Positions 1,559-46,090 are shown, numbered from the stretch's first letter. The stretch is DNA of 64,000 bases from Acidimicrobiales bacterium (GCA_965216685.1 OZ244195.1:209610-273609), one strand, 5' to 3'. The notes: a model not told the origin generated them from the sequence alone. Numbers and translations: made by a program.

Positions 1559-1567
1559 ACCGCCCGC

Positions 1568-3265: not shown

Positions 3266-3290
3266 CAGCGGGGAAAGAGACTCCCGGCAG

Positions 3291-4746: not shown

Positions 4747-4758
4747 CAGACGCCGACA

Positions 4759-9306: not shown

Positions 9307-9339
9307 GACGGGCGGCGAGCTGTGATCCCGAGCAGGGAC

Positions 9340-13235: not shown

Positions 13236-13237
13236 CC

Positions 13238-13738: not shown

Positions 13739-13842
13739 CTTCCATTAACAATGTTATCGACGAGACCATATCGGTGATGTCAGCGGTCAATCCCGGTGTC
13801 GATTGTCTGCGTCCTGCCCTCTTCGGACGTCTCGAATTCCCG

Positions 13843-22938: not shown

Positions 22939-23022
22939 GCGGACGTGGCGGAACTGGCAGACGCACCAGGTTTAGGTCCTGGCGCCCTAACGGGCTTGGG
23001 GGTTCGACTCCCCCCGTCCGCA
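22939..23022 (+). tRNA. tRNA-Leu (anticodon UAG)
   Basis: Acceptor stem GCGGACG/CGTCCGC, anticodon stem CCAGG/CCTGG with loop TTTAGGT, long variable arm, and T-arm GGGGG-TTCGACT-CCCCC. Confidence 0.85.
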
Positions 23023-23090: not shown

Positions 23091-24509
23091 TTACCAGCTG
23101 AAGGGACGATCGATGCCGGCCAGCTTGACCCCGGTGAAAGCCGAGGCCTCCAACGACAGCGCCCGCAGATCCTCCATCTCCAGATTGTGGACCGACGACT
23201 TGCCGCAGGCCTTGGCCAGCAGGGTGATCTCCATGGTCATGGCCGTCAGATAGCGGGCCACCCGCTCGGCCCCGGCGGCCACGTCCATCCGCTTCTCCAG
23301 CTCCGGATCCTGCGTGGTGATTCCCACCGGGCAGAGTCCGGTGTGGCAGTGGTGGCACTGCCCGGGGCTGGTTCCGAGAGCGGCGTAGTCGTCGAGATAG
23401 CGGGGACTGTTGCAGCCCAGCGACACCAGACCGGCGGTGCCGATCATCACACAGTCGGCCCCCAGAGCCAGGGCCTTGGCCGCATCGACCCCACTGCGGA
23501 TACCACCGGCGGCCACCAGCTTGACCTCATCGGCCATACCGGCGTCCTCCAGCGCTTCCCGGGCGGCCCGGATGGCCGACAGCGTTGGTATGCCGGTGTG
23601 ATCGAGGAGCAGTTCGGGCGATGCCCCCGTACCACCCTCGGCTCCGTCGACCACGATCACGTCAGCCCCGGCCTTGGCGGCGATGGCAACGTCGAATCGG
23701 GGCCGGGTGGCTCCCATCTTCACGAAGATCGGAACCTGGTAGCCGGTGGCTTCCCGCAGCTCCTCGATCTTGACCTGCATGTCGTCGGCCCCCAGGAAGT
23801 CGGGGTGGCGAACGGTGCTGCGCTGATCGACCCCCAGCGGCAGCGAACGCATCCCGGCCACCCGCTCCGAAACCTTCATGCCCAGCAACAGGCCGCCGGT
23901 GCCGGGCTTGGCTCCCTGGCCCACAACCAGCTCGATGGCGTCGACCTGACGGAGGTGGCTGAGGTCGAGCATGTAGCGGGACGGCGTCATCTGGTAGACC
24001 AGCAGGTCGGAGGCCTCCCGCTCGTCTTCCAGCATGCCGCCCTCGCCGGTGCAGGTCATCGAGCCCACCTTGGACGCCCCGTAGCCCAGGGCGGCCTTGG
24101 CCGAGGCCGAAAGCGCACCGAACGACATCGAGGCGATGTAGATCGGGATCTTCAGCTCCAGTGGCCGTTCCACCAGCCCGGGACGATCGCCCAGCACGGT
24201 GGTTGTGTCGCAGCTCTCCCGGTAGCCCTCCAAAGGCAGGCGGGTCATCGACGCCGGCACGAACGTCAGGTCGTCGAAGGTGGGGAAGCGGGAGTTGAAG
24301 GTGGTGAATCCCCGGATCTGGTAGCGACCCAGCCGGGACAGGGCGTGGACCTCGGAAATGGACTCCGGTGTCCAACGGATCGATTTGCCCCGGTCATAGG
24401 ACGACGGGACACCAGCCGGTCGGCCGTCCACCGCCCCGTCGCTGTAGGCCACCTCCTCCTCGGAGGGCATTGTGAACGGATACTCGTAACGCCCTAGATC
24501 ATCAGCCAT
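23091..24509 (-). CDS. FMN-binding glutamate-synthase-domain protein (GltB domain 2 / MgsC-like)
   Basis: MSFGALSASAKAALGYGA, GEGG, QGAKPGTGGLL, VVDGAEGGTGASP and a CHHCHTGLCPVGITTQ Cys cluster. The ATG at 24509 overlaps the upstream stop by 16 nt. Confidence 0.8.
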   Translation of the reverse strand: MADDLGRYEYPFTMPSEEEVAYSDGAVDGRPAGVPSSYDRGKSIRWTPESISEVHALSRLGRYQIRGFTTFNSRFPTFDDLTFVPASMTRLPLEGYRESCDTTTVLGDRPGLVERPLELKIPIYIASMSFGALSASAKAALGYGASKVGSMTCTGEGGMLEDEREASDLLVYQMTPSRYMLDLSHLRQVDAIELVVGQGAKPGTGGLLLGMKVSERVAGMRSLPLGVDQRSTVRHPDFLGADDMQVKIEELREATGYQVPIFVKMGATRPRFDVAIAAKAGADVIVVDGAEGGTGASPELLLDHTGIPTLSAIRAAREALEDAGMADEVKLVAAGGIRSGVDAAKALALGADCVMIGTAGLVSLGCNSPRYLDDYAALGTSPGQCHHCHTGLCPVGITTQDPELEKRMDVAAGAERVARYLTAMTMEITLLAKACGKSSVHNLEMEDLRALSLEASAFTGVKLAGIDRPFSW

Positions 24510-25192
24510 GCGCTTGCGTCCCTGCTCTCGAAGTGCCACAGCTTCTGGCCGGACACGATCTTCTTCCAGTCGCGGTCGCCAGGCCCGACCTCCAGCCCGG
24601 CCAGCAACTCATCGACCGAGGCCACTTCGGCCGCCTCCGGCTCGACCACCTTGGTGTCGACCCCCAGGCTCTTGATCGAGCCGGCCACCCAGACCTCCCC
24701 GCCCCACAGCGAGTCGCCGGTGGCCTCGCCGGCGTCGCCCAGGGCGATGATCCGCCCGTCGTGGGCCATGAATCCGGAGAGAAAACCGAGGTCGCCCTCG
24801 ATGACGATGTCGCCCCCTTTCATGGCCACACCGCAGCGGGGCCCGGCGTCGCCCTTGACGTGGACCAGGCCGCCCCGCATGGAGGCCCCAACGCTCATCC
24901 CGGAATAGCCGGCCACCGTGACCCGACCGGAGGCCATGGCTTCACCGGTCCCCCAGCCTGCGTTGCGGGTGACGGCGATCTCGGCCCCGTCGTTCAAGCC
25001 ACCGCAGTAGTAGCCGACCGAACCCTCGAATCGGACGTTGGCCCCCTCGGGCAGTGCCACCCCCAGGTTGTGACGGGATCGGGTGTCGGTGACCACGATG
25101 GTCCGCCCGGCGGCGGCCAAGGCCCGGATCTCGGCGTTGATCTCCCGGATCGGACGCTCGCCGACCTCCACAGTGGTCTCGGTCACGGTCAT
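24494..25192 (-). CDS. GXGXG-motif protein (glutamate synthase alpha-subunit C-terminal domain / MgsB-like)
   Basis: This is the last 232 codons of the 566-aa track ORF. It carries repeated G-x-G-x-G beta-helix motifs (GSVGYYCGGLNDGAEI, GWGTGEAMASGRVTV, GMSVGASMRGGLVHVKGDAG). ATG 25192 overlaps the upstream TGA (ATGA). Confidence 0.75.
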   Translation of the reverse strand: MTVTETTVEVGERPIREINAEIRALAAAGRTIVVTDTRSRHNLGVALPEGANVRFEGSVGYYCGGLNDGAEIAVTRNAGWGTGEAMASGRVTVAGYSGMSVGASMRGGLVHVKGDAGPRCGVAMKGGDIVIEGDLGFLSGFMAHDGRIIALGDAGEATGDSLWGGEVWVAGSIKSLGVDTKVVEPEAAEVASVDELLAGLEVGPGDRDWKKIVSGQKLWHFESRDASAWLMI

Positions 25193-26157
25193 CGGGCCGA
25201 CCCCGCCCCGGCCGATCCGGCGCCGGCCATCGAGCGAACCGACCAGACCTTGGTCAGGCTGGGCCCGTCGTAGTTGGCCATCTCGACGTCGTCGAGGTAG
25301 ATCTTGCGGACCGCCTGCTCCTCGGTGGCCACCGCCAGGGTGCCGCTCTCCTCCTCCACCGCCACCAGGGGTTTGATGGCGAAGGGATCCTTGGCGAAGG
25401 CCATCGAGTCGATGGTGGCCAGGATGTAGGTGAAGCAGCCGTCGAGTTTGATCACCGAGTCCTCCAGCGATTCCTCGATCTTGTGGCCCTTGGCCATCTG
25501 GTCCGACAGCCAGATGGCGATCAGCTCGGAATCGTTGTCGGTCTTGAAGTCGTAGCCGGCCCTGATCAGCCGGCCTTTGAGCAGCTGATAGTTGGTGAGC
25601 TGTCCGTTGTGGACGATGGCGATGTCGGGATACGGCCGGGCCCAGAACGGATGGGAGGCGGTGGGCGAGACGAACGACTCGGTGGCCATACGGGCATTGG
25701 TCAGACCGTGGGACCCCACGAAGTCCCTGACCCCGTGTTTGTCGGCCACCGTGTACCCGTCTCCCAGGTCCTTGATGATCTCCAACGATCGACCGACCGA
25801 TTGGATCTCGAAGCCATCGATGTGATCGGCATCGGCCAGCCACTGTTCGAAGGTGGAGGTGGGGTCGGTTATCTCCAGGCGGACTGAAACATGGTCGGTG
25901 GTGTCGTCGTCCCAGGTCGGCTGGCCGATGAAGTCGGAGCCGTGGCTCCGTGCTATGGCCAGGAAGGTTTCGAGGTGGTCGGACAACGACGCTCTGTCGG
26001 CCACCACCCGCACGACGTAGGAGTCGGTGCGGGGTTCGCCGTACATGCCGAAGCCGGTGGAGTCGGCCCCCCGGTGCCGTTGGGCCTGAATCAACTCGAC
26101 CAGGTCGGCCCCGATAGACCCGTGGGGGCAGAGTATCCGGCCTGCTATGCCGCACAT
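25189..26157 (-). CDS. class II (Ntn) glutamine amidotransferase-domain protein (GltB domain 1 / MgsA-like)
   Basis: ATG 26157 gives the MCGIAG N-terminus (nucleophile Cys2) and lies 6 nt after an AAGGAG site. The track start at 26163 is a TTG two codons upstream. Confidence 0.75.
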   Translation of the reverse strand: MCGIAGRILCPHGSIGADLVELIQAQRHRGADSTGFGMYGEPRTDSYVVRVVADRASLSDHLETFLAIARSHGSDFIGQPTWDDDTTDHVSVRLEITDPTSTFEQWLADADHIDGFEIQSVGRSLEIIKDLGDGYTVADKHGVRDFVGSHGLTNARMATESFVSPTASHPFWARPYPDIAIVHNGQLTNYQLLKGRLIRAGYDFKTDNDSELIAIWLSDQMAKGHKIEESLEDSVIKLDGCFTYILATIDSMAFAKDPFAIKPLVAVEEESGTLAVATEEQAVRKIYLDDVEMANYDGPSLTKVWSVRSMAGAGSAGAGSAR

Positions 26158-26213
26158 CGGCAACTCCTTCCGCTCGGCGGATCCTCGGGATCATCGAGGA
26201 TCCAGACGAGTAC

Positions 26214-26228
26214 TGAATACAGTATACG
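26214..26228. promoter_or_regulatory. operator-like palindrome, copy a (TGAATACAGTATACG)
   Basis: It lies 57 nt upstream of the MgsA-like start. It is one of four related 15-mers in this window. Confidence 0.55.
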
Positions 26229-26270
26229 ATCAGCTCTCAGCCTAGTGCCCGGGCCGACACGGAGGCAAAC

Positions 26271-26891
26271 TCAGCCCAACCCCTCGCACCGGTCGAGCAG
26301 ATGCTCGAGCAGATCGACGTGATCCCGCACCTCGCCCTCCTTGAAGGGCACGGTGTAGGGCGGTAGTGGGGGGAAGTAGACGGCGGTGATGGTTCCCGCC
26401 AGCGGAACCAGTTCGATGTGTACACCGCCCGGATCATGCACCACCGACATCGACTTCAGTTCGGACCGACCGGCCAGCTGCCGGGTTTCCTCATCGGCCA
26501 AGGCCTCGGCCACGTCCCGGGCGGAATCCAGGGCCTTGGTGGCGAAGGCGCGGCGGTCGAAGCGGTAGTTGTAGCGGGCCGCCCGCTCCCCCGGCTCGCC
26601 CTTGCGGGCGATCCACTGGGTGTCGATCAGCGCCCCGAACAGCCGGAAGTTTCCCTTGAATCCCACTTCGATGGTCGCACCGTCGGGCCGCACGGTCCGT
26701 GCCGACCGGTAGTCGACCTCGTCAAAAACCACGTGGTCGGCACCGTAACGGCGAACCAGCTCGCCGTGGGGAAGCTCGATGAGGGAGCGGCGCCGGGCCC
26801 GATAGAGCGTCCGGACACGACCACCGAGGCCGAGAAAGGTGGACCCGGTGTCAAAACCGGATCCACCCTCGGTTCGAGTCCTGCCGGTCAT
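26271..26891 (-). CDS. DUF3156-like hypothetical protein
   Basis: This is the last 206 codons of the 339-aa track ORF. ATG 26891 overlaps the permease TGA (ATGA). The family assignment is from memory only. Confidence 0.45.
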   Translation of the reverse strand: MTGRTRTEGGSGFDTGSTFLGLGGRVRTLYRARRRSLIELPHGELVRRYGADHVVFDEVDYRSARTVRPDGATIEVGFKGNFRLFGALIDTQWIARKGEPGERAARYNYRFDRRAFATKALDSARDVAEALADEETRQLAGRSELKSMSVVHDPGGVHIELVPLAGTITAVYFPPLPPYTVPFKEGEVRDHVDLLEHLLDRCEGLG

Positions 26892-28312
26892 ACAGTCTGA
26901 TGAAGTTCCTCTTCGAGATGATCGGCCTGGCCCGACGAGCCCCGCATGGCATAGGAGATGACGGCCACGACGGCCGAACCCAGGATCATCCACAGAGCCC
27001 GCGGCCCGTAGAAATCGTGGCCGCCTCCGGTGAAGGTCTGATACCACACATACACGGTGAGCAGAAAGCCGATCACCGGCACCACCAGTGGCAACTTGAA
27101 AGGCCGGTTGACGTCTGGGTTGACGTAGCGGCTGCCCGCCACCAGCACGTGGTAGGTGATGTAGAGCAGCATCCAGACGTAGGCGGCGGTGAAGATCAGG
27201 TCGCCGACCCCGGCCCCTCCGTCGGCCACGATCCCCCAGTAGATGGTGACGAAGGTGTAGAGCACGGCGGTGAACAGGATGGCCACCCACGGCGTCCGGT
27301 AGCGGGCGTGCACACTGCCGAACGGCTTCGACAACGGACCGAGGAAATGGCCGTTGCGGGACATGCCGTAGAGGATGCGGGGCATCGAGGCGTAGACCAC
27401 GGTCAACGAGGCGAAGGAGGCCACGGTGGCGGCCAGCGCCATCAGGAAGCGGCCGCTACCGCCGAACATGGCCTCACCGACCTCGAGCTGGGGGGCGTCC
27501 TCGGAGACGATACCGGCCCACTCGGAGTTGATGCCACTGACACCCAGTCCCATGAACATCGAGGTGGCCAGAATGGCTATCAACCCCCAGACGATACCCC
27601 GGGGGATGTTGCGGGCCGGATCCCTGGTCTCCTCGGCCAGGGGGGCCACGAACTCGATGCCGACGAAACTCCAGAAGGCCCAGGCCCCGGCGATGGCCAT
27701 CAGGCCGCTCAAGCCGCTGAACTCGGCCGGTGTCGACGGTATGTTGCCCCACGACCAGCCACCGAGGTCGCTGAACCCAAGGAATCCGGCCAGCCCGAAG
27801 AACCAGCGGATGGCCAGCATGACGATGATCAGGCCCAGCTCCAGCTTGGCCAGCACCTCGATGCCGAACAGATTGGGAATCACGGCGAACACCGTCAGGA
27901 TCAACACCCACATGGTGACGCTTCCGCCGTCGAACAACCCGACCATGCCCGAGGCTCCGGCCAAGGTCTCACCGGCGCCGGCGAACATGAACATCACATA
28001 GAACAGCAGACCGAGGAAGATGCCGACCACGGTCTTGGCCGCATGCCCCCCGGGGGTGGCGGCGGCGCCGTAGTCGTACAGTGCTCCGGCCTTGGGATAG
28101 GTGGTCGACAGCTCGGCCGCCGACAGACCCAGCAGCAGGTTCACCACGAACATGGCCAACAAGCCCACGGCAAAGCCCCGGCCGGCGGTGAACCATCCCT
28201 GGAAGTCCGATACCAGCGTGGAGGCCGCCACCACCAAGCCGACGCCGGCGGCGAATATGTCCTTCGTGCCGAGAGCCTTTTTCAGGCCCTCCCCCTCAAC
28301 GACAGCAGTCAT
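26888..28312 (-). CDS. APC-family amino acid/amine permease
   Basis: About 12 hydrophobic segments and 474 aa, with an AAGGAG site 7 nt upstream of the ATG. Confidence 0.8.
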   Translation of the reverse strand: MTAVVEGEGLKKALGTKDIFAAGVGLVVAASTLVSDFQGWFTAGRGFAVGLLAMFVVNLLLGLSAAELSTTYPKAGALYDYGAAATPGGHAAKTVVGIFLGLLFYVMFMFAGAGETLAGASGMVGLFDGGSVTMWVLILTVFAVIPNLFGIEVLAKLELGLIIVMLAIRWFFGLAGFLGFSDLGGWSWGNIPSTPAEFSGLSGLMAIAGAWAFWSFVGIEFVAPLAEETRDPARNIPRGIVWGLIAILATSMFMGLGVSGINSEWAGIVSEDAPQLEVGEAMFGGSGRFLMALAATVASFASLTVVYASMPRILYGMSRNGHFLGPLSKPFGSVHARYRTPWVAILFTAVLYTFVTIYWGIVADGGAGVGDLIFTAAYVWMLLYITYHVLVAGSRYVNPDVNRPFKLPLVVPVIGFLLTVYVWYQTFTGGGHDFYGPRALWMILGSAVVAVISYAMRGSSGQADHLEEELHQTV

Positions 28313-28362
28313 TGCCTAGCTCCTTCGTGTGAGCGTCTGGTCAAGCCTGTCCCCACAGGGCT

Positions 28363-28377
28363 TGAATTCTGTATACG
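28363..28377. promoter_or_regulatory. operator-like palindrome, copy b (TGAATTCTGTATACG)
   Basis: It lies 51 nt upstream of the permease start. Confidence 0.5.
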
Positions 28378-28429
28378 GTGTTCACGATCGTAGCCCACGA
28401 TGCAGAGGACGCGCCACAACCAGCAACAA

Positions 28430-29047
28430 TCAGACGTCGAACGCCGACCAGCAGATCTCGTTGCGTAGGCGTTGATCGTCGAGAACAAGTGAGCGAATCG
28501 CATCGGGAAGCTGTTCACGCTGCCAGCGACACTCGGCCCGCCCGGCGGCCACCTGGTCGTCAGTCAGGGTTCCGGCCGGTACACCGGCCGGGGCTCCGGC
28601 CACGGACTCGGCCACGGCATCGGCCCATACCGCCTTGATGGCGTAGGCCGCGGCGCCGAGCTCATGGGCGGCAACATGGGCCACAGCCGCGGCGTGGCCG
28701 GCGGCGTAGGCGGCGTGGCGGGACGCTCCGCTCAGGGGTTGGGCTGCTCGCATGGCCCGGGTTCCCGCCGAACGGCACTCCATCATCTTCATCTGGCCGC
28801 CGGCCCAGGACCGGATGGCCGCGATCGCCTCCCGAGGCCTCCGGTCAGCCGGTTGCTCGGACTCGAAGAAGTGAAGCACGTGGGCCGCACAATCCGCCGC
28901 CCACTCAGCCAGCAGTCGATGATTGGCGTCGCTGAGGCTACCGCCCCGCCGGATCGTGACGAAACGAGGGTCTCGCTTCTCCGGGAGGATCACGGCCTCG
29001 TACCGATGGTCAGGCTCGTCACCCCAGCTCGGCGGCCACGACGGCAT
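28430..29047 (-). CDS. conserved helical hypothetical protein (resembles the putative-immunity / Imm-5-like family)
   Basis: The pattern LLAEWAADCAAHVLHFFE...DRRPREAIAAIRSWAGG...HAAAVAHVAAHELGAAAYAIKA is recalled from a widespread uncharacterised family. Confidence 0.35.
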   Translation of the reverse strand: MPSWPPSWGDEPDHRYEAVILPEKRDPRFVTIRRGGSLSDANHRLLAEWAADCAAHVLHFFESEQPADRRPREAIAAIRSWAGGQMKMMECRSAGTRAMRAAQPLSGASRHAAYAAGHAAAVAHVAAHELGAAAYAIKAVWADAVAESVAGAPAGVPAGTLTDDQVAAGRAECRWQREQLPDAIRSLVLDDQRLRNEICWSAFDV

Positions 29048-29417
29048 CGACCTCGATTTCCACCATCATGCCCGGCGTGGTCAGGCCCGCCTCGAAGCCG
29101 GTCATCACCGGCTCGATACCGGCAAAGACCTCGCCGTGGGCCCGCACCGCGTCGCCCGCCCCGGCCATGTCGGAGAAGATCAGCCTGGTCCGGACCACAT
29201 CGCCCAGCTCTGCCCCCACGTCGTTGAGAGCCTGCTCGATCCGCTTCGGGGCATAGCGCGTTTGGGCGTAGGCGTCGCCCGGAGCGTGTAGCCGCCCGCT
29301 GGGTTCGATGGCCGTGGTTCCGGCCACGAACACGAACGGCCCCACCCGCTTGGCCCGGCAATACGAGCCGGCCTTCTCGAACCGGCCACCTCCATAGGCC
29401 TTCCGGATCTCAACCAC
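29019..29417 (-). CDS. RidA/YjgF-family reactive-intermediate (enamine/imine) deaminase
   Basis: 132 aa, with FVFVAGT...G......Q......N........G....DVVRTRLIF and a C-terminal MVEIEVDAV. Confidence 0.75.
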   Translation of the reverse strand: MVEIRKAYGGGRFEKAGSYCRAKRVGPFVFVAGTTAIEPSGRLHAPGDAYAQTRYAPKRIEQALNDVGAELGDVVRTRLIFSDMAGAGDAVRAHGEVFAGIEPVMTGFEAGLTTPGMMVEIEVDAVVAAELG

Positions 29418-29436
29418 CTACTCATCCTTTCCCACG

Positions 29437-29466
29437 GCGGCTAGTCTGAATGCGGCTAGTCTGAAT
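29437..29466. repeat. perfect 15-bp tandem direct repeat (GCGGCTAGTCTGAAT x2)
   Basis: Read directly from the sequence. The second copy supplies the left half of operator copy c. Confidence 0.8.
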
Positions 29467-29476
29467 ACAGTACTCA
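29462..29476. promoter_or_regulatory. operator-like palindrome, copy c (TGAATACAGTACTCA)
   Basis: It sits in the divergent region between the ridA-like gene (start 29417) and the GntR gene (start 29510). Confidence 0.55.
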
Positions 29477-29509
29477 ATCAACGACGGTACGCATTCACCG
29501 AAAGTCACC

Positions 29510-30178
29510 ATGATGTTTCAGAGCCTGAAACGCTCGCCCGTCCGGCTGGCCGACCTGGTCTACGAACAGATCTTCCGAGCCATCGTCAACGGCGACCTTG
29601 CTCCGGGCGAGCGCCTGGTGCAGGAGACCATCGGTGAGCAGATGCAAGTATCCCGGACTCCGGTCCGCGATGCCCTGCTCCGGCTGGAGTCGGAGGGCAT
29701 TCTGGAGTCGTCGGGCCGGGGCGGCTACCTGGTTCGATCGTTCGATCGGCAGGAAGCCATCGACATCTACGGCCTGCGGGCCGCCGTCGAGGGTTACGCC
29801 GCCGGGGTGGCAGCCGACCGGGGCGACCAGGCCGACCTGGAGCTGATCGAGAAGGCCATCGCCGAGGCCGACGGCAACAACATCTCGCTCGACGAGGGAT
29901 TCGAGATCAATCGTCGCATTCACCGGGGTGTGGTGCTGGCCGCCCGCAACGCCATGCTGCTCGACGCCTTCGACACCGTGTGGGGTCGCAGCCAGTCGTT
30001 CCGGATGTTCGCCCGCCTTCATTCCCCCGAGCTGCGATACCTCAACGCCGAGCCCAGCCACGACCAGGTGCTGGCCGCCATCCGCACCGGCGATGCCGAT
30101 CATGCCCGGCGAACCATGGAACAGCACATCATGGTCGGCATGGCCCAACAACTCGAGGCCCTCCCCGACGACATCTGA
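29510..30178 (+). CDS. GntR-family transcriptional regulator (FadR/FCD subfamily)
   Basis: An N-terminal winged HTH (LADLVYEQIFRAIVNGDLAPGERLVQETIGEQMQVSRTPVRDALLRLESEGIL) and an all-helical C-terminal domain. Confidence 0.85.
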   Translation: MMFQSLKRSPVRLADLVYEQIFRAIVNGDLAPGERLVQETIGEQMQVSRTPVRDALLRLESEGILESSGRGGYLVRSFDRQEAIDIYGLRAAVEGYAAGVAADRGDQADLELIEKAIAEADGNNISLDEGFEINRRIHRGVVLAARNAMLLDAFDTVWGRSQSFRMFARLHSPELRYLNAEPSHDQVLAAIRTGDADHARRTMEQHIMVGMAQQLEALPDDI

Positions 30179-30187
30179 GCCGGCGTC

Positions 30188-31390
30188 TCATTGGTGCCAA
30201 CCATCGAGACGTCGACGCACGGCGGCGGCCGCTGCCTCCAGGGCCTGGCGCTCCCCCTCGACCAGTGGCAGTTCCACCACCTCCAACACGCCGCCCCGCC
30301 CCAACAGGGCGGGCACGCCGACCACGACGTCACGAATACCGTAGGCCCCATCCAGCACCACCGAAACCGGGATATGACCCGGCCGCGCCCCCCGCAGGGC
30401 GTTGAGCACCTCCACGGTGGCGTAGGCCGGAGCAATGGTGGCCGAACCGGTCCGCCGCAGCGCCACCACGTCTCCCCCGCCGGAAACGGCCTGGTCGACA
30501 CAACGCTGGATCTGCTCCTCGGTCAACATCGCCGACAGGGGCCGGCCCTGAATCGTCGACTGCGAAACCACGGGCACCATCTCGGCCCCGTGGCTTCCCA
30601 GGGTCAGGGCCTCGACGTCGGCCACATCCACCTCGGCGGCGGCGGCCAAGGCCCGCCGGAAACGGGCGGAATCAAGGGTGCCGGCCATCCCGATCACCTT
30701 CTCCCGGGCAAAGCCGCTCTCGGTGTACATCGTCATGGTCATCTCATCGAGGGGATTGGTGATGACGATCACCACCGCCTCGGGAGCATGGGCCACCACG
30801 GCCTCGGCCACCGACCGGACCACCCGGCCGTTGAGCTCCACCAGATCGGACCGGGACATACCCGGCGAGCGGGGCCGACCGGCACTCACCACCACGACGT
30901 CGGCCCCGGCCACCAACGACAGATCGGTACCGCCTGACACCTCGGTCGTCGACCGGGTCACCCCCGAAGCGTGATTCAGGTCGAGGGCCACCGAGGCGGC
31001 CCAGCCGGGCACGATGTCGATGAGTACGATCTCGGCCGACAGCGAGTCGGCGGCGGCCAGCAGAGCGGTGTTGGCCCCCACTCCCCCGGCGCCGACGAAG
31101 GCCACCTTGTCGAACACGATGGGGTTGAGCCCGACCGGAGCGGCCGGTGACATCCAGCCGGGATTGCGTCGGTAGAGGGCACGGCGCATGGCCGTGGCCC
31201 CGCCGACCTGGGGAACGGCCGGCTGTTCGGCCGGCCCCCGAACGAAGCTGATACCCAGCCGCTCGGCGCTGTCGCGGGCTTGACCGGTGATCAGGTCGCC
31301 GTCGCTAAACGAGATTCTCGTCTCCCCCCGCCGGCGGGCGGCCTGAACGTCTTCGTCGCCGATGACCCGGCCCCGGCCGCCGTCGCTCAC
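30188..31390 (-). CDS. LDH-like malate dehydrogenase with a ~95-aa N-terminal extension
   Basis: The core KVAFVGAGGVGANTA, GRPRSPGMSRSDL (Arg-type, malate specificity), ITNPLDEMT and GSHGAEMVP begins about residue 95. The GTG start overlaps the BMC-T stop (GTGA). Confidence 0.75.
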   Translation of the reverse strand: MSDGGRGRVIGDEDVQAARRRGETRISFSDGDLITGQARDSAERLGISFVRGPAEQPAVPQVGGATAMRRALYRRNPGWMSPAAPVGLNPIVFDKVAFVGAGGVGANTALLAAADSLSAEIVLIDIVPGWAASVALDLNHASGVTRSTTEVSGGTDLSLVAGADVVVVSAGRPRSPGMSRSDLVELNGRVVRSVAEAVVAHAPEAVVIVITNPLDEMTMTMYTESGFAREKVIGMAGTLDSARFRRALAAAAEVDVADVEALTLGSHGAEMVPVVSQSTIQGRPLSAMLTEEQIQRCVDQAVSGGGDVVALRRTGSATIAPAYATVEVLNALRGARPGHIPVSVVLDGAYGIRDVVVGVPALLGRGGVLEVVELPLVEGERQALEAAAAAVRRRLDGWHQ

Positions 31391-32031
31391 TCCTGTCGAC
31401 CCTCGATCGATTCGATCGTGGTGACGGCGGCCTCCATGGCCGTCTCCACCGCCGATTCGGTGCCGGAGAAGAAGGCCCGACCGAAGCGGCCCACGGCCCG
31501 CACCTCGACCAGGTCGATGTCGGCCGATTTCTCGGCTTCATTGACGGCGGCCCCCACGTAGGCCGCCGGACTGCATTCCACGATGCCCAGGGTCTGTCCC
31601 GGCACCAGGAGGGAACCCGACCGCCACTTGTTCAACAACTGAGCCTGGTAGGGCTCAACCGAGGTGATGACCTGAGTCGACTCCAACCGCGGTTTCACCC
31701 GATCATTGATCGACAGTCCCAGCATGTCGAGCACGGCGTCCCGGGCGGCCGAGATCTCGGCGTTGACCGGCGACCGGAGGATGAAGAAGCCGAACTCCCG
31801 CTCGACGATCTGGGTGGTGGCCTCGATGGTGGCCGCCTTGAGCGCGGTGTCGATGACCCGGAACACGGTGTTGCCGGGAGCGAACTCGCCCATCAGGATG
31901 GTGTCGCCGGCCAGTGGGATCGAACCCTGGACGGTGGCCCCGTTGTAGGCGGCGAACTTGGGTTGCAGCCGGTTGATCTGCAGCAGGGCCCGCATGGTCA
32001 ACGGGCTGGTCACCCCAGCGTTCCGGCTCAC
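31387..32031 (-). CDS. BMC-T shell protein (tandem BMC domains)
   Basis: Two BMC-like halves: GDTILMGEFAPGNTVFRVIDTALKAATIE...FILRSP and LGIVECSPAAYVGAAVNEAEKSADIDLVEVRAVGRFGRAFFSGTESAVETAMEAA. GTG 32031 overlaps the AldDH TGA. An ATG at 31995 is an alternative start. Confidence 0.7.
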   Translation of the reverse strand: MSRNAGVTSPLTMRALLQINRLQPKFAAYNGATVQGSIPLAGDTILMGEFAPGNTVFRVIDTALKAATIEATTQIVEREFGFFILRSPVNAEISAARDAVLDMLGLSINDRVKPRLESTQVITSVEPYQAQLLNKWRSGSLLVPGQTLGIVECSPAAYVGAAVNEAEKSADIDLVEVRAVGRFGRAFFSGTESAVETAMEAAVTTIESIEGRQE

Positions 32032-33416
32032 GTTTGATCCTCCCCGTAGACGTCGAAGATGGTGCGCCACGGCCGCGACTCGTAGACCACCCGTTTGATG
32101 TTGATCAGATGGAGAGCGTTGACGTTGTCGGACACGATCGAACCCGACCCGGTTCCGGTGCCCAGCATGAAGCTCGGTTCGAGGTCGGAGGAGTAGCCCA
32201 TGGCGGCCATGAGCGCCGGCTGATTGACCACCACCCGGCCGCTGGGGAGCCGGGCAAAGCGGGACACCACCGAGGCGTCGTGGCTGTGGATCACCGCGGT
32301 GTGACCGACCCCGCCCCAATCCAGGATCCGGCCGGCCAGATCCAGCCCGTGGTCGACGGTGGCCGCCTCGTACCAGGCCAGCACCGGGTTGAGTTTCTCC
32401 AGGCTCAACGGCCGGTGGCGGCCGACCTCGGTCTCGGCGGCCAGCAGCACCGTGGTGCCGGGCGGGATGTCGAACCCGGCCCGTTGGGCCAGGGTTTGGG
32501 CCGACTGGCCTACGCCGCCCGGTCGGATGTGCTGGGACTCGTCGAAGATCACATCGGCCAGTCGCTCGGCTTCAGCCGGACTGCAGAAATAGCCTCCCCC
32601 CTGCCTGATCTCGGCCCGGAGGGCGGCGGCGATGGACCGGTCGACGATGACGGCCTGCTCCCCGGCACAGGCCGTGCCGTAGTCGAAGGCTTTGGAGATG
32701 AGGATCTGCTCGGCCACGTCGGCCACCTCGTCGACCATCGACTGGTGGACGTAGCACGGCACGTTGCCCGGACCGACGGCCAGTGTCGGTTTACCCGACT
32801 GGTGGGCGGCCCGGACCATGGCCGATCCGCCGGTGGCCATGATGATGGCCGTCTTCCGGTGCCGCATCAGAGCATCGGTGCCCTCCAGCGTGACCTCGTC
32901 GAGGCACTGGATCAGGCCGTCGGGTGCGCCGTGGTTGCGGGCGGCCTCGGCCATGACCCGGGCCGTCTCCCGACCGCAGTTCACTCCCCGGGGATGAGGA
33001 GCGCAGACAATGGCATTGCCCGACTTGATGGCCGACAGAACCTTGAAGATGATCGTCGAGGTCGGGTTGGTCACCGGGATGATGGCGGCCACCACCCCCA
33101 TCGGTTCGCCCACCGCCATTGTCCTGGTGTTGGCGTCGTGCCACAGCACCCCGAGGGTGGTGATGTTGCGCAGCCAGTCGGCCACCCCCCGGGCGTTGAA
33201 CAGGTTCTTGATCCGCTTGTCGGGGGCGTTGCCGTAGCCGGTTTCCTCGGCCGCCATGACGCCCAGCCGGGCGGCCTCGGTTTCGATGGCCTGGGCCATG
33301 GCCTCGACGATGCGGTCGATATGCTCCGGTGGCGTGCCCCGGAACTTCTCGAAGGCGACGTGGGCCGACTCCACCGCCTGGCGTGCTTGGGCGATGCTTC
33401 GCAAATCGGCATCCAT
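32028..33416 (-). CDS. CoA-acylating aldehyde dehydrogenase (PduP/EutE-like)
   Basis: This is the last 462 codons of the 914-aa track ORF, starting MDADLRSIAQARQAVESAHVAFEKF. It has IIPVTNPTST, a catalytic Cys context (DYGTACAGEQ), VGPGNVP, and lacks the long oligomerisation tail of non-acylating ALDHs. Confidence 0.8.
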   Translation of the reverse strand: MDADLRSIAQARQAVESAHVAFEKFRGTPPEHIDRIVEAMAQAIETEAARLGVMAAEETGYGNAPDKRIKNLFNARGVADWLRNITTLGVLWHDANTRTMAVGEPMGVVAAIIPVTNPTSTIIFKVLSAIKSGNAIVCAPHPRGVNCGRETARVMAEAARNHGAPDGLIQCLDEVTLEGTDALMRHRKTAIIMATGGSAMVRAAHQSGKPTLAVGPGNVPCYVHQSMVDEVADVAEQILISKAFDYGTACAGEQAVIVDRSIAAALRAEIRQGGGYFCSPAEAERLADVIFDESQHIRPGGVGQSAQTLAQRAGFDIPPGTTVLLAAETEVGRHRPLSLEKLNPVLAWYEAATVDHGLDLAGRILDWGGVGHTAVIHSHDASVVSRFARLPSGRVVVNQPALMAAMGYSSDLEPSFMLGTGTGSGSIVSDNVNALHLINIKRVVYESRPWRTIFDVYGEDQT

Positions 33417-34591
33417 CACGACCACCCGATTCCCAGGCTGTCGATGGTTCTCCGGACCGTGCCCATGGAGTCGGCCCGGATACCGATGCGATCGAGACGG
33501 CGACCGGCCGAGTCCAGGTCGCCGCCGAGGACGGCCTTGGCCATGTCGATCATCGAGCGGGTGGCGGGAACGTCGATACCGGCCGGCTCGGCCGCCGACG
33601 CCAGCGGCACCAGCGATCCCAACACGGCACAACGCAGCCGGGACCGGGCCTCGACGGCAGTAGGAATCGTTCGGCCTCCCTCCTCGCTCCCGTCGCCCAC
33701 CACGGCGGCGATGGTGGCCGCCGGATCGGGGAGATCCCGGACACCCCACCGTTCGGCCACCCGGCGGCGCTCGTCGACCAACCGCTCGACCAGCTCGACC
33801 TGACCGGGTTGGAACCGGGACGCCATGCTGGCCCCGGCCAGGGCCACCGCCCCCGGAGGCAGGTCGGGAGACTCGTCGAACACCGGACCCCCGACCAGCA
33901 GGGCCACGGCCTCCACCGCCCCCGAGTGGTCGGCGAAGCTGGAGTGGATGACGGTCGGAGCCGAGACGATGGAGGGAAAGAACCGTTGCAGGCCGGTCAC
34001 CACGGCGTCGAGTGAACTGGGCAGGGTGGCCACCATCGGGTCGACACCGGGATGGAAGTGCAGTACGTGATCGCGGCGCTCCAGCCCGAAGGGCAGGGCC
34101 GACATCTCGGCCACCGTCACCCGGTTGGAGGCACCTCCCACCCGCAACCACCAGGTGGTCTCCAGTGCTCCGAAGGTCCGCCCGGGGGCCACCAGGAGAA
34201 TCTGATCCTCGGCCAGCCGGTCGGCCAGGACCAGGCCGTAGGTCCGTTGCTTCAGGACGGTGCCGGTGACGACGATCAGATCGGCCCCGGCGACGGCCTC
34301 CTCCAGGATCGAGGTCACGGCGATGTGGGGTCCGTCGCCTTGGGTCTGGTAGGTGCCGATTGGACCGGCACCGCGCACGGTGACACCCCGGGCCAGCCGG
34401 GCCAGGTCGTCCTGGTAGACCGAGAACAACGAGACCCCACCGGCCCCGTTGGCCAGGAACCAGGCGGCCAGGGCTTGGCCCTCGATCCCGCCGCCCAGGA
34501 CGGCGACCCGGTCGATGACCGGTTGGGGTTCGGGGGGACGCTGGTCGTCGGTGAACGACTCCAGCACGGCTTGAAAGTCGGCCGAGGTCAT
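33416..34591 (-). CDS. opine (octopine/nopaline)-dehydrogenase-family NAD(P) oxidoreductase with a short N-terminal helix plus Pro-rich linker
   Basis: Rossmann motif VAVLGGGIEGQALAAW, then LIVVTGT..., then LVAPGRTFGALET...VTVAEMSALPFGLERR...VATLPS. This parallels the PG.TGGALE...ET.S.LF..R...A.LP pattern of opine dehydrogenases. Confidence 0.6.
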   Translation of the reverse strand: MTSADFQAVLESFTDDQRPPEPQPVIDRVAVLGGGIEGQALAAWFLANGAGGVSLFSVYQDDLARLARGVTVRGAGPIGTYQTQGDGPHIAVTSILEEAVAGADLIVVTGTVLKQRTYGLVLADRLAEDQILLVAPGRTFGALETTWWLRVGGASNRVTVAEMSALPFGLERRDHVLHFHPGVDPMVATLPSSLDAVVTGLQRFFPSIVSAPTVIHSSFADHSGAVEAVALLVGGPVFDESPDLPPGAVALAGASMASRFQPGQVELVERLVDERRRVAERWGVRDLPDPAATIAAVVGDGSEEGGRTIPTAVEARSRLRCAVLGSLVPLASAAEPAGIDVPATRSMIDMAKAVLGGDLDSAGRRLDRIGIRADSMGTVRRTIDSLGIGWS

Positions 34592-34608
34592 CGACTGTCG
34601 GGCCGGGC

Positions 34609-34893
34609 TCAGTCAGCCTGAGGCAGGATCGACTCCACCTCGGCCGACGGGCGGGGGATGACGTGGACCGAGACGACGTCGCCCACCTTGTTGGCGGCCA
34701 CCGCCCCGGCGTCGGTGGCGGCCTTGACCGCGCCGACTTCACCTCGGACGAACACCGCCACCAGGCCGCCACCCACCTTCTCGCTGCCCACCAGCGTCAC
34801 GTTGGCCGCCTTGATCATGGCGTCGGCGGCTTCCACCGCTGCCACCACACCTCGGGTTTCGACCATTCCAAGCGCAACTTGCTCCATTGTCAC
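34609..34893 (-). CDS. BMC-H shell protein (PduA/CcmK-type hexamer)
   Basis: [57 protein letters not shown] is a canonical BMC domain. Confidence 0.9.
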
Positions 34894-35201
34894 TTTCTCC
34901 TCTTCGGTTTCTCCGAACTCCGGTAGACCGACGTTCCGGCGTGTACCACTTCATCGAGAATCATCACCACGGCGGCATCGACCGCCCGGCCCCGGCTGGC
35001 CGCCGGCTGCCGAGCCGCCGATCCGGTGGTCACCAGGACCCAGTCACCGACACCGGCCCCCAGATCGTCGACCGCCACCTCGCCCGGTTGCTGCACCTTG
35101 CCGGCGCCGTCGACCAGGTCGACGACCAGGAGCTTGCGGCCGGCCAGGCCTTCGGCCTTGATCGTGCCGGTCACGGTGCCGACGATGCGGCCGATCCTCA
35201 C
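34890..35201 (-). CDS. BMC-P vertex protein (EutN/CcmL-type pentamer)
   Basis: [27 protein letters not shown]....G......[23 protein letters not shown]....DAAVVMILD is a canonical EutN/CcmL pattern. Confidence 0.85.
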
Positions 35202-35204
35202 CGG

Positions 35205-36491
35205 TCAGAACCTCCGCAGGTAACGCGCCGTTTCCACCGGCGTCACCTGCTGGGCCATGAACTCGATCTCCCGCTCGGCCTGCCCGATCCAGATGCCGAG
35301 GAGATCTTCCCCCAGCAGATCGGCCACGAACTCCGATTCCCGAGCTGCGGCCACGGCGGCCTCGATGGTCACGGGAATGGGTTGGGCCTCGCCGTTCTCG
35401 TAGGCGTTGCCCAGGTCGGGATCGCCGGGATCGAGATCCTCCTCGATTCCCCGTAGACCGGCGGCGATCTGGGAGGCCAGTAGGTAATAAGGGTTGGTAT
35501 CAGCCGAGCCGTCGCGCTGTTCGATGCGGACCGCGCTGTCGTGGCCCTCGATGACCCGGAGGCCGACGGTGCGGTTGTCGTATCCCCAGGCGTTGTTGGT
35601 GGGGCAGAAGGTGTAGGGCTGACGGCGACGGTAGGCGTTGGGGGTGGACGCCGACAGCAACGCCGTTTCCGCCATGTGTCGTCTCATGCCGGCCAGATAC
35701 TGGCGGCCGATGGCCGACAGCTTGCCGCCATCGGCGAAGATGTTCTTGCCGTCGCGCCAGGCCGAGTGATGGACGTGGAATCCCGAGCCGGACTCCTCGA
35801 AGAACGGCTTCGACATGAAGGTGGCGACGTAGCCGTTGGCCACCGCCAGTTGTTTGATCATGCCCCGGAAGGCCACCACGTTGTCGGCGGTGGCCATGGC
35901 TTCGCCGTAACGGATGTTGACCTCGACCTGACCGGCGGCGTACTCCGGGTTCGACTGTTCGATGGGGATGCCGGCGGCGGTGAGGTCGTTGCGGATCGGA
36001 CCGAGGATCGATTCCAGCTCCATGGCCCGTTCCAGGCCGTAGACCTCGATGCCCGAGTCGCGGGGCCGCAGGGTCTCGGGGTCGAGCAGATAGAACTCGA
36101 GTTCGGCTCCGATGGAGATCTCCAGCCCCATGTCGGCCGCTTTGTCGGCCACCTTGAGCATCACGTTGCGGGGGTCGATGGGGCAGGGTGCGCCGTCCTC
36201 GGTCTGAACCTTTCCGGGACAGAAGGCGGCGCCGGGATCCCAGGCCATGGGCCGCACCTCGTCCGAGTCGGGGAGCACGAAGATGTCGGGGTAGCCGGTC
36301 TCGAAGTTGGTGTAGGGCGTGTCCCAGATGTCGCATGTCATGTCGAGAGCGAAGATGGCGTTGGACATGGCCATGCCGTGCTCGGCCACAGTGGGCCAGT
36401 GACTGGCCGGGATGCGTTTGCCCCGGAGGATGCCGTTGGTGTCCCCCACGCCCAGGACAACGGTGTGAATTCCCTCGGGCAGCTGGCTCAT
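35205..36491 (-). CDS. glutamine-synthetase-family gamma-glutamyl-amine ligase (GmaS/PuuA/GlnA3-like)
   Basis: GS catalytic-domain motifs are present (GAELEFYLLD, NPEYAAGQVEVNIRY, KPFFEESGSGFHVHHS, NAYRRR). It is the first gene of the BMC operon. Confidence 0.75.
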   Translation of the reverse strand: MSQLPEGIHTVVLGVGDTNGILRGKRIPASHWPTVAEHGMAMSNAIFALDMTCDIWDTPYTNFETGYPDIFVLPDSDEVRPMAWDPGAAFCPGKVQTEDGAPCPIDPRNVMLKVADKAADMGLEISIGAELEFYLLDPETLRPRDSGIEVYGLERAMELESILGPIRNDLTAAGIPIEQSNPEYAAGQVEVNIRYGEAMATADNVVAFRGMIKQLAVANGYVATFMSKPFFEESGSGFHVHHSAWRDGKNIFADGGKLSAIGRQYLAGMRRHMAETALLSASTPNAYRRRQPYTFCPTNNAWGYDNRTVGLRVIEGHDSAVRIEQRDGSADTNPYYLLASQIAAGLRGIEEDLDPGDPDLGNAYENGEAQPIPVTIEAAVAAARESEFVADLLGEDLLGIWIGQAEREIEFMAQQVTPVETARYLRRF

Positions 36492-36594
36492 TTGTTCTCC
36501 TCGTGCATGGTTCCCCCAATGCCGTAGTCGTTGGTCCCCGGTTCGTCTCCCACCGGAGCGGCTCTGATCGCGGCTTGCCCTACCCTACATCGAC

Positions 36595-36609
36595 TGAATA
36601 CAGTATTCA
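36595..36609. promoter_or_regulatory. operator-like perfect palindrome, copy d (TGAATAC-A-GTATTCA)
   Basis: It lies between the divergent GS-like/BMC operon (start 36491) and the FAD oxidoreductase gene, ending 2 nt before that gene's ATG at 36612. Confidence 0.6.
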
Positions 36610-36611: not shown

Positions 36612-37754
36612 ATGCCTGAAGCCGACGTTGTCATCGCCGGAGCCGGCATCGTCGGACTGTGCACCGCCCGCGAGCTTCAGGCCGCCGGGGCCGACGTCAT
36701 GCTGGTCGACCCATGGGAGCCAGGCCACGCCCGCCAGGCGTCAGCCGGCATCCACCGGGTCATCCGCTCGACCCACGGCAGCGATGAGCTGTACACCCGT
36801 TGGGCCCGGGAATCACGGCTGCGGTGGCTGGAGATGCAGGCCACCACCGACACCCCCATCTACCACGAATGCGGGGCCGTGGTCCTCGCCGCCGAAGGCC
36901 ACGACGAATGGGAGATGGCAACCATCCCGACCTTCGACCGGCTCGGCATCCCCTACCTGCGCCTGTCACCCGATGAGCTGGTGGTTCGCTTCCCCACCTT
37001 CGACCCCCGGCAGGTGGCCTTTGCCCTCTACGAACCGGAGGCCGGCTTTCTCTGGTCCCGCAACATCGTGCGCAAACTCTACGCCGACTTCCTGACCGCC
37101 GGCGGGCGGTTCCGGCGAACCCGGTTGACCGTGTCCGACGACGAGCGGCCGCTGCTGGAGGGCCGACCGGTGGAGGCCGAACACACCGTCATCGCCAACG
37201 GGGCGTGGATGGGATATCTACTGCGCTCCTCCCTGGGTCGCCTGCTGCGGGTGGTCCGCCAAGACATCATCTACACCAGCGTTCCCGAAAACGACGACCG
37301 CTGGCACGCCGACCGCCATCCGGTCTGGATCGACCACGGCTACGGGGCCTACGGCATCCCCGACGCCGGAGGCTACGGCTTCAAGGCCGCCATTGCCTGG
37401 CATGAGTCCGACATCAGGCTCGACGACGACGACCGGGTGGTCGATCGGGCCTCCATGGCCCGGTCCCAGCAGTATTTGGGTTACCGCTTCCCCGACATCG
37501 CCGGGCAGGCCATCGTCGACCAGAAGGTATGCCAGATCGTCATGACCCCCGACACCCACTTCCTGCTCGACACCCACCCTGAGCATTCCGATGTGATTCT
37601 GGCCGGTGGCGGATCGGGGTCGATCTTCAAACACGGCCCGGTGGTCGGCGCCTACGTGGCCGGCATGGTTCAGGGCCGCTGGCGGCCCGACGACCGTTTC
37701 ACCCTGGCCAACCGGCGAAGCCTGTCGATGGCCGAATCCCCCTCCGGCCGCTAG
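36612..37754 (+). CDS. FAD-dependent amine/sarcosine-oxidase-like oxidoreductase (DAO family)
   Basis: ATG 36612 gives MPEADVVIAGAGIVGLCTARELQAAGADVMLVD (a dinucleotide fold at the N-terminus). The track start at 36531 (TTG) would put the palindrome inside the coding sequence. Confidence 0.75.
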   Translation: MPEADVVIAGAGIVGLCTARELQAAGADVMLVDPWEPGHARQASAGIHRVIRSTHGSDELYTRWARESRLRWLEMQATTDTPIYHECGAVVLAAEGHDEWEMATIPTFDRLGIPYLRLSPDELVVRFPTFDPRQVAFALYEPEAGFLWSRNIVRKLYADFLTAGGRFRRTRLTVSDDERPLLEGRPVEAEHTVIANGAWMGYLLRSSLGRLLRVVRQDIIYTSVPENDDRWHADRHPVWIDHGYGAYGIPDAGGYGFKAAIAWHESDIRLDDDDRVVDRASMARSQQYLGYRFPDIAGQAIVDQKVCQIVMTPDTHFLLDTHPEHSDVILAGGGSGSIFKHGPVVGAYVAGMVQGRWRPDDRFTLANRRSLSMAESPSGR

Positions 37755-45705: not shown

Positions 45706-46090
45706 GGGGCTGATCGGTTTCGACGTTGAGACGAGAAGTCGTGTGTGCGACCCGAGTTGCTCAGACTCGTTAAACGGGGCTTAACAGAAGCGCCAACAAG
45801 GCTGACTTCGCTCTCGCCGCCTGATAATCAGGTAGCTAGAGGAACATCGCGAGCCGCGAGGCCACGCGGGGCCTGATCATTGCAGCCCGGCAACAGAAGC
45901 AGTGGTGGACGATGGGAGAGACCATTGACGGCAGGCAAAGACCGCTGACTCCTGGGAAAGCCCAGGCGGAATGCCGCAAGGCAACGTTGACCCGGCAACC
46001 AGGCAACCGTAGAGCCGAATCACGGGAATGGTCGTAGCGTGTGCGATGACTCCTCAGCGGACGGGGGTTCGATTCCCCCCAGCTCCACCA
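45706..46090 (+). ncRNA. ssrA: tmRNA (transfer-messenger RNA)
   Basis: The 5' end GGGGCTGATCGGTTTCGAC pairs with the 3' tRNA-like end GACGGGGGTTCGATTCCCCCCAGCTCCACCA. The tag reading frame is GCC AAC AAG GCT GAC TTC GCT CTC GCC GCC TGA TAA (tag ...ADFALAA). It lies immediately downstream of smpB. Confidence 0.85.

Follow-up and report, generated by a model that had tools for sequence, protein, structure and literature searches.

The closest described counterparts of the locus analyzed here are two repressors, Atu1419 and NanR, a catalogued type of bacterial microcompartment (BMC) named MIC2, and the N-methylglutamate (NMG) pathway of methylamine use. The locus lies in a 64,000-nt stretch of DNA from an Acidimicrobiales bacterium (GCA_965216685.1 OZ244195.1:209610-273609), which we call the window and whose positions serve as coordinates throughout. 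Its defining element is a short motif found in front of a BMC operon, of other transcription units and of the gene for a GntR-family regulator with an FCD effector domain. It is very common for a GntR/FCD repressor to be encoded locally and to have palindromic operators both at its own promoter and at those of its targets. Atu1419 from Agrobacterium fabrum, a repressor of the FCD/VanR group, binds as one dimer to the 10-bp palindrome ATGTATACAT, in which Arg45 reads G3 and Thr46 reads A5 of the opposite strand, and changing G3 to A in the operator abolishes binding (PMC7797058). Its Zn ligands are Asn137, His141, His192, and His214, and its palindromes overlap the -10 boxes of its own and target promoters (PMC7797058). 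NanR of E. coli, also a GntR/FCD protein, occupies its (GGTATA)3 repeat operator as three dimers (PMC8012715).

On the metabolic side, MIC2 was catalogued from 22 loci, mainly in Proteobacteria and in only two Actinobacteria, with no function given (PMC8217296, Supplementary Data 2). The type is recognized by an aldehyde dehydrogenase (AldDh, pfam00171) without an encapsulation peptide, an Ldh/Mdh protein (pfam02866) with an N-terminal extension of ~70 residues, a 6PGDH-like superfamily protein, and a glutamine synthetase (GS, pfam00120) (PMC8217296). The NMG pathway is encoded by gmaS, mgsABC, and mgdABCD (PMC6237917). Our literature search found no paper on MIC2 function or on the regulator of the present locus. 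Here, we find that the motif occupies four intergenic sites that are, as judged from sequence and by analogy with Atu1419, very probably the operators of the local GntR/FCD regulator (29510-30178), and that the gene set bounded by these sites points to a role of MIC2 in amine catabolism.

Results

A tandem-hexamer motif in four intergenic regions

A previous, sequence-only reading of this DNA had proposed that four copies of one 15-bp palindrome join the BMC operon, an MgsABC-like operon, a permease operon, and a GntR/RidA gene pair into one regulon. The four copies are present with the sequences that were read. The degenerate pattern TGAATWCWGTAYWCR has four sites in the window, at 26214, 28363, 29462, and 36595 (five strand-matches), and no match in 100 dinucleotide-preserving shuffles, and the perfect palindrome, with up to three mismatches allowed, has 9 strand-matches where 0.19 are expected. 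None of the four operators lies within a gene, each being upstream of one or more transcription units, and the distances and neighbors originally read were also right. Site a is 57 nt upstream of the MgsA-like start (ATG at 26157), and site b begins 51 nt ahead of the permease start (28312). Site c separates the ridA-like gene (start at 29417, minus strand) from the GntR gene (start at 29510), and site d separates the GS-like/BMC operon (start at 36491, minus strand) from the FAD oxidoreductase gene (start at 36612). The operators are as follows.

26207-26228, operator a: GAGTAC-T-GAATAC-A-GTATAC, three hexamers, with 15-mers at 26207 and 26214; upstream of the MgsA-like gene
28363-28384, operator b: GAATTC-T-GTATAC-G-GTGTTC, with 15-mers at 28363 and 28370; upstream of the permease gene
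29462-29476, operator c: in the divergent ridA/GntR promoter region
36595-36609, operator d: perfect palindrome TGAATACAGTATTCA; in the divergent promoter region of the GS-like/BMC operon and the FAD oxidoreductase (DAO) gene

Parts of the sequence-only reading needed amendment. The statement that the 64 kb hold no further copy stands outside the four intergenic regions, where no matrix match reaches 10 bits, but within them two additional 15-mers overlap the first ones, each shifted by 7 nt: CGAGTACTGAATACA at 26207 in operator a and TGTATACGGTGTTCA at 28370 in operator b. The description of the element as a 15-bp palindrome, or 7-1-7 inverted repeat, is accurate for site d, a true palindrome, but the other sites are better read as tandem GWATWC hexamers. 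The motif core consists of hexamers G-W-A-T-W-C whose centers are 7 bp apart, every hexamer being itself a mini-palindrome; in the symmetrized counts of a 26-site matrix (described below), G2, A4, T5, C7, G9, A11, T12, and C14 are invariant or near-invariant. Operators c and d have two hexamers and operator a has three, as does operator b weakly; the third hexamer of operator a, GNGTAC, is kept in eight of nine loci, and that of operator b among close relatives only. Lone GWATWC hexamers occur in the window at chance level (22 seen, 24 expected), and pairs at exactly 7-nt spacing occur three times in the window and never in 200 shuffles. Specificity therefore resides in the tandem.

Operator c is preceded by a perfect 15-nt tandem duplication at 29437-29466 (GCGGCTAGTCTGAAT twice), the unit of which copies a -10-like TAGTCT plus the left TGAAT of the operator. 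L081 and L082, the loci most closely related, do not have it, which makes it a recent event within the GntR/ridA promoter.

The motif keeps its positions in diverged loci

Related loci were gathered by a genome-contig scan for relatives of the regulator and by exact-protein look-ups, and window proteins were mapped onto them by tblastn. Among the matches listed, the contig scan gave mostly unrelated GntR loci, the useful ones being L001, L002, L033, L004, and L005; the unrelated loci, high in GC and 739 kb in total, served as the background set. The regulator relatives lie in metagenome-assembled contigs, and those contigs that carry a name are annotated Acidimicrobiia. When a first matrix built from the four window sites was scanned over the related loci, it found class a sites (DUF3156-like/MgsA-like junction) in at least nine, class b sites (upstream of the permease gene) in at least eight, and class c sites (upstream of the GntR gene) in nine, the loci with sites of these three classes being L001, L002, L033, L081-L086, L091, L095, and L097. 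Class d sites (GS-like/DAO spacer) were found in every related locus where that spacer was covered (L081, L082, L086, L106, L107, and L108-110). Promoters of orthologous loci thus carry the motif at the same four intergenic positions although their regulators are only 41-78% identical, and the 25 nt on each side vary freely among loci while the motif is unchanged. By this comparison of sequences, the motif is a phylogenetic footprint.

The reverse test gave the same picture. For it, a matrix was built from 26 sites of related, Acidimicrobiia-like contigs, leaving the window out (consensus TGWATACWGTATWCA); this matrix recovers exactly the six window 15-mers, at 15.7-28.1 bits, and nothing else of at least 10 bits in the 64 kb. 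On the unrelated high-GC GntR loci (739 kb, among the matches listed), it finds 0.26-1.2 matches per 64 kb, depending on the threshold. Contigs retrieved through homologues of the GS-like gene (L106, L107, and L108-110) have their sole match of at least 10 bits, in 11-13 kb, in the DAO/GS-like spacer. L106 shares its contig with L085, and L107 with L084, and in these two genomes the class d site is kept even though over 10 kb separate the BMC operon from the GntR gene. An exact search of metagenome contigs with the class a 18-mer GTACTGAATACAGTATAC returned 18 matches. Three are in high-GC contigs, all at the DUF3156-like/MgsA-like junction, and sites b and c follow where the contig reaches; the other 15, in low-GC contigs (0.34-0.52), have none of the locus genes around them, a number that fits chance for an AT-rich word. 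The reading of the locus as a motif-defined regulon is thus supported by positional conservation, by an independent matrix, and, as set out below, by structural analogy with Atu1419.

One related locus (L085) has an extra strong copy, TGTATTCAGTACACA (19.9 bits), at 16464-16478. This copy is intergenic, upstream of a MerR-family gene, with ~6 kb separating it from the GntR gene, and the regulon of that genome may have a further member here.

The local regulator has the DNA-reading residues of Atu1419

The regulator gene that accompanies the motif is the following.

29510-30178, plus strand: GntR-family regulator with FCD effector domain (VanR/FadR-type), the proposed repressor of all four promoter regions

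Its product has a GntR winged-helix domain (PF00392, Pfam E 7.7e-16, residues 15-75) and an all-helical FCD effector domain (PF07729, Pfam E 2.5e-22, residues 85-207). No other regulator gene occurs near the motif in every related locus; the GntR gene is on the same contig as the motif-bearing promoters in every genome examined, and a motif site is always present directly upstream of it. Site c, which is 33 nt ahead of the GntR ATG, shares bases with a -10-like TAGTCT, and autoregulation is thus plausible from the sequence.

Among solved structures, the best match is Atu1419 (E 1e-14; PDB 6Z74 and 6ZA0-6ZAB). The recognition helix, SRTPVRDAL, differs from that of Atu1419, SRTPVREAL, at one residue in the HMMER alignment, and S48, R49, T50, and R53 align with Atu1419 Ser44, Arg45, Thr46, and Arg49. 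Atu1419 contacts DNA through Arg31, Glu34, Ser44, Arg45, Thr46, and Arg49 of helices alpha2 and alpha3. All of these except Glu34 have aligned counterparts (R35, S48, R49, T50, and R53) that do not vary among 26 orthologues, and Glu34 is replaced by Q38, which is likewise invariant. The invariant G, A, T, and C columns of G-x-A-T-x-C are the bases contacted in Atu1419, and the positions not contacted there are the variable W columns. Since invariant columns match bases read by conserved recognition-helix residues, each hexamer is predicted, by analogy, to be a site for an Atu1419-type dimer. In the effector domain, N134, H138, H184, and H206 are invariant across the 26 orthologues as well, and would form the metal site of Asn/Asp plus three His that marks the metal-binding FCD subgroup. 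N134 and H138 align with the Atu1419 Zn ligands Asn137 and His141; the counterparts of H184 and H206 in 7XP0 and 3SXY are His residues, and the two correspond to Atu1419 His192 and His214.

Operator positions suggest promoter occlusion

Operator a contains a -10-like TATACT on the transcribed strand (seven of nine loci), and operator b has a TANNNT (TACGAT, 28387-28392, minus strand) 7-9 nt upstream, conserved in seven of eight loci. The left edge of operator c overlaps TAGTCT, -10-like for the GntR gene on the plus strand. At operator d, a TAGGGT lies 7 nt downstream toward the GS-like gene in the window and in L081, L082, L106, and L107, and a TACAGT lies inside the operator in the DAO direction. 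The -10-like hexamers are conserved across loci for classes b, c, and d. Since the operators overlap or abut such hexamers, a bound protein would block RNA polymerase, and their positions, as far as sequence goes, suggest repression via promoter occlusion.

The DAO ATG (36612) is 2 nt past operator d and 7 nt past the internal TACAGT, and the equivalent gap between operator and ATG in L081 is ~60 nt. Because the ATG follows the operator so closely, the sequence suggests that the DAO mRNA is leaderless in this genome.

In the mechanism that we propose, five units would be controlled together: the GS-like/MIC2 operon, the divergent sarcosine-oxidase-like (DAO) gene, the GntR gene with the divergent ridA, the permease operon, and the MgsABC-like operon. 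Regulator dimers on the tandem hexamers would cover the -10 and start regions and exclude RNA polymerase, and the repressor would come off once a pathway metabolite occupied the Zn site of its FCD domain, so that all 16 genes would be switched on together.

Weighing the operator assignment

Several points weigh against this assignment. DNA binding, repression rather than activation, stoichiometry, and the identity of the effector are all things that we infer. The confinement of the motif to the locus covers 64 kb and the related loci, out of a genome of 5.39 Mb. The operator core TACWGT itself fits TANNNT, which makes the overlap with -10 elements partly automatic, and an E. coli-type promoter/terminator scan found nothing at the sites, a scan that is uninformative for an actinobacterial-type genome of 65% GC. 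In proteobacterial MIC2 loci whose GntR proteins are 37-40% identical to the window regulator (L004, L005, and L087), there is no clear motif in the parts searched; their RidA-to-transporter spacer has no convincing TGWATACWGTATWCA site or shared palindrome, the main promoter being outside the parts searched. Finally, a distance of 7 bp might bring two Atu1419-type dimers into steric conflict, and a single dimer spanning the 15-mer is possible.

This last point belongs to an alternative that we consider unlikely, namely that the GntR protein binds these sites but acts as an activator or dual regulator, or that a single dimer covers an entire 15-mer, rather than each hexamer having its own. The position of operator d just upstream of the conserved TAGGGT of the GS-like/BMC promoter fits activation, as it fits occlusion of the -35/spacer region, and a 7-bp spacing is tight for two dimers. 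However, the operator covers the -10 or start site at promoters a, b, c, and DAO, and the characterized FCD relatives Atu1419 and NanR are repressors. As for a single dimer, NanR is a precedent for several dimers on closely spaced hexamer repeats (PMC8012715).

Another possibility is that the motif is real but is bound by a transcription factor encoded elsewhere, such as a global nitrogen or carbon regulator, and that the GntR protein controls something else. Binding by the GntR protein is a deduction here, and the motif also fronts BMC operons more than 10 kb from the GntR gene. However, no regulator gene other than the GntR gene accompanies the motif throughout the related loci, the site directly upstream of the GntR gene is typical of autoregulation, and the invariant bases match those read in Atu1419 by identical recognition-helix residues. 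We know of no resemblance of the motif to actinobacterial GlnR, AmtR, CRP/GlxR, or Rex boxes, which also weighs against a factor of this kind, and altogether we regard it as improbable.

That the copies are non-regulatory is very hard to credit: the sequences are AT-rich and single hexamers are at chance frequency, but tandem pairs never arise in shuffles, diverged genomes keep the positions, no stable hairpin can arise from a 7-nt stem and a 1-nt loop, no copies exist elsewhere in the window, and an Rfam scan of the four intergenic regions found no RNA element. Chance palindromes, hairpin-forming elements, and repeats resembling repetitive extragenic palindromes (REP) were accordingly rejected, on positional conservation and shuffle statistics.

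Gene content of the predicted regulon

The gene map was drawn by open reading frame calling guided by GC content at third codon positions (GC3) and by Pfam. Besides the regulator gene, the locus contains the following.

23091-24539, minus strand: MgsC-like protein, FMN glutamate-synthase domain (Pfam)
24494-25192, minus strand: MgsB-like GXGXG protein (Pfam)
25189-26157, minus strand: MgsA-like class II amidotransferase (Pfam; MCGIAG start)
26271-26891, minus strand: DUF3156-like protein (Pfam/NCBIfam)
26888-28312, minus strand: APC-family amino acid/amine permease (Pfam/NCBIfam)
28430-29047, minus strand: Imm5-like putative immunity protein (Pfam E 6e-32)
29019-29417, minus strand: RidA-like protein, ridA-like gene (Pfam)
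30188-31390, minus strand: Ldh/Mdh-like protein with N-terminal extension (Pfam)
31387-31995, minus strand: BMC-Tdp (BMC-T), 202 aa, BMC domain; orthologues carry CsoS1D_N
32028-33416, minus strand: aldehyde dehydrogenase (Pfam Aldedh)
33416-34591, minus strand: opine-dehydrogenase-like protein, 391 aa (weak Octopine_DH match; CENDH homology)
34609-34893, minus strand: BMC-H (Pfam BMC)
34890-35201, minus strand: BMC-P (Pfam EutN_CcmL)
35205-36491, minus strand: GS-like ligase, first gene of the BMC operon (Pfam Gln-synt_C, E 3.9e-84)
36612-37754, plus strand: FAD oxidoreductase, DAO family (Pfam DAO), divergent from the BMC operon

The three adjacent genes at 23091-26157 (minus strand) have the domain architecture of NMG synthase and would encode a split glutamate-synthase-like enzyme, an activity predicted from sequence; site a lies between the DUF3156-like and MgsA-like genes, and the ATG at 26157 gives the MCGIAG start with the Cys2 nucleophile. 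The MgsC-like protein is 76-92% identical to its orthologues in every related locus, the proteobacterial ones included, and RidA is conserved beside the GntR gene or within the BMC operon across phyla. The FAD oxidoreductase belongs to the monomeric sarcosine oxidase (MSOX)/N-methyltryptophan oxidase family (MSOX structures match at E 3e-32; its NCBIfam score is below the cut-off), and its divergent arrangement with the GS-like gene is conserved in related loci. No protein of the locus reaches an NCBIfam equivalog cut-off, so we claim no exact enzyme activities.

The cluster is bounded by a tRNA gene and by the housekeeping genes ClpP, Ham1, and RNase PH. The tRNA gene (22939-23022, plus strand) is directly downstream of the MgsC-like gene and marks the cluster edge; a tmRNA gene lies at 45706-46090 (plus strand, 103 bits). 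The Imm5-like gene, which sits between ridA and operator b and overlaps the 3' end of ridA by 29 nt, is in no related locus. Cytochrome P450 genes stand beside the GntR or DAO gene in L083 (10713-13174), L084 (10697-11920), and L107 (286-1545), which hints at lineage-specific pathway extensions.

MIC2 and a putative amine pathway

By its predicted gene content, the BMC operon (30188-36491) is of the already catalogued MIC2 type, a further amendment to the sequence-only reading. In the Ldh/Mdh-like protein, Ldh_1_N begins at residue 95 of 400, leaving an extension of ~94 residues that agrees with the BMC-specific extension of MIC2, and the Aldedh domain is present in the aldehyde dehydrogenase. 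Along its full length, the 391-aa protein is homologous to CENDH (1BG6, E 2e-11), an opine dehydrogenase whose full name is N-(1-D-carboxyethyl)-L-norvaline dehydrogenase. Opine dehydrogenases belong to the 6PGDH-like superfamily. This protein is, by homology, a candidate for the aldehyde- or keto-acid-releasing signature enzyme of MIC2; the opine dehydrogenase and MSOX-type oxidase families both cleave secondary amines.

The partnership of these genes extends beyond the Acidimicrobiia. Two gammaproteobacterial metagenome-assembled genomes (MAGs; L004 and L005) and an unclassified contig (L087) combine, at 1-13800, MIC2 genes with RidA, MgsABC-like, and GntR genes in the co-directional order BMC-H, opine-dehydrogenase-like, AldDh, BMC-T, Ldh-like, RidA, five-gene ABC transporter, GntR, and MgsABC-like. 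The link between MIC2 and these enzymes thus holds across phyla, independently of the motif. Conversely, widespread alphaproteobacterial (marine) contigs (L111-L114, 6208-11296) have a RidA-MgsA-MgsB-MgsC-GS-like cluster, 55-79% identical to the window proteins, and lack shell genes, a GntR gene, and the motif, so the enzyme module occurs both alongside a microcompartment and on its own. The GS-like ligase shares 65% identity with alphaproteobacterial GS-like genes that come after mgsABC-like genes, and it scores below NCBIfam cut-offs. No MgdABCD-type NMG dehydrogenase is encoded within the motif-bounded gene set, which has the MSOX-like and opine-dehydrogenase-like genes instead.

Taken together, the predicted regulon and the cross-phylum synteny tie MIC2 to amine catabolism, in that they point to a route via an N-substituted glutamate. 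In such a route, a small primary amine would be imported and gamma-glutamylated by the GS-like ligase, and the MgsABC-like enzyme would convert the product to an N-substituted glutamate. The opine-dehydrogenase-like protein and/or the sarcosine-oxidase-like flavoenzyme would then cleave this to glutamate and a reactive aldehyde, which the shell would confine for the aldehyde dehydrogenase, and RidA would quench imine by-products. We put forward only tentatively the fuller proposal that the regulon supplies the front end of MIC2, which would make it the first microcompartment fed by an N-methylglutamate-type route, with an opine-dehydrogenase-like signature enzyme and tandem-site GntR control.

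Discussion

The regulatory logic of this locus is routine, yet it offers a concrete handle on an uncharacterized type of microcompartment. The shared operator defines which genes act together with the MIC2 shell, namely those for the GS-like ligase, the MgsABC-like synthase, RidA, the transporter, and the secondary-amine oxidase. MIC2 shells, catalogued without a substrate or an aldehyde-generating signature enzyme, thereby gain a testable pathway: amine catabolism via gamma-glutamyl and N-substituted glutamate intermediates. The regulator-operator pair could be used for inducer discovery by ligand release or as an inducible switch, and the abutting hexamer sites make a simple system for asking how FCD-type dimers pack on DNA.

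Comparison with the known regulators highlights important similarities and differences. With Atu1419, the window regulator shares the FCD architecture, the recognition helix save for one residue, the DNA contacts (Ser, Arg, Thr, and Arg), and the Zn ligands (Asn and three His), and both systems have GTATAC-core operators at several promoters, their own included, that overlap -10 boxes, catabolic genes being repressed by Atu1419 (PMC7797058) and, in our prediction, here. However, Atu1419 uses single 10-bp palindromes 109-190 bp apart that a tetramer bridges by DNA looping, whereas two or three adjacent hexamers at 7-bp spacing are found here; overall identity is low, the HMMER alignment spanning only residues 22-141, and Atu1419 controls hydroxycinnamate degradation rather than a BMC/amine locus. 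NanR of E. coli is likewise an FCD-type repressor acting on two or three close hexamer repeats with a GTATA-like core (PMC8012715). The main differences are that its repeats are direct GGTATA repeats, whereas the GWATWC hexamers are self-palindromic, and that the sequence match is weak (NCBIfam, 40 bits). The NanR repeats are spaced by 8-9 bp, versus 7 bp here.

The metabolic comparisons are similarly two-sided. The BMC operon has an enzyme set identical to that of MIC2 as defined by Sutter et al. 2021 (AldDh, Ldh/Mdh with extension, 6PGDH-like protein, and GS; PMC8217296), but the catalogue text omits the regulator, the MgsABC-like enzyme, RidA, the transporter, and the MSOX-like oxidase, and most of the relatives that we found are Acidimicrobiia MAGs. 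The GS-like ligase and the three-part enzyme (class II amidotransferase, GXGXG, and FMN domain) resemble the first two steps of the NMG pathway, but the locus differs in having a microcompartment and, in place of MgdABCD, a monomeric sarcosine-oxidase-like flavoenzyme and an opine-dehydrogenase-like protein. Relative to the literature that we found, what is new is therefore the operator, its tandem 7-bp hexamer architecture, and the regulatory and syntenic link of MIC2 to N-methylglutamate-like enzymes.

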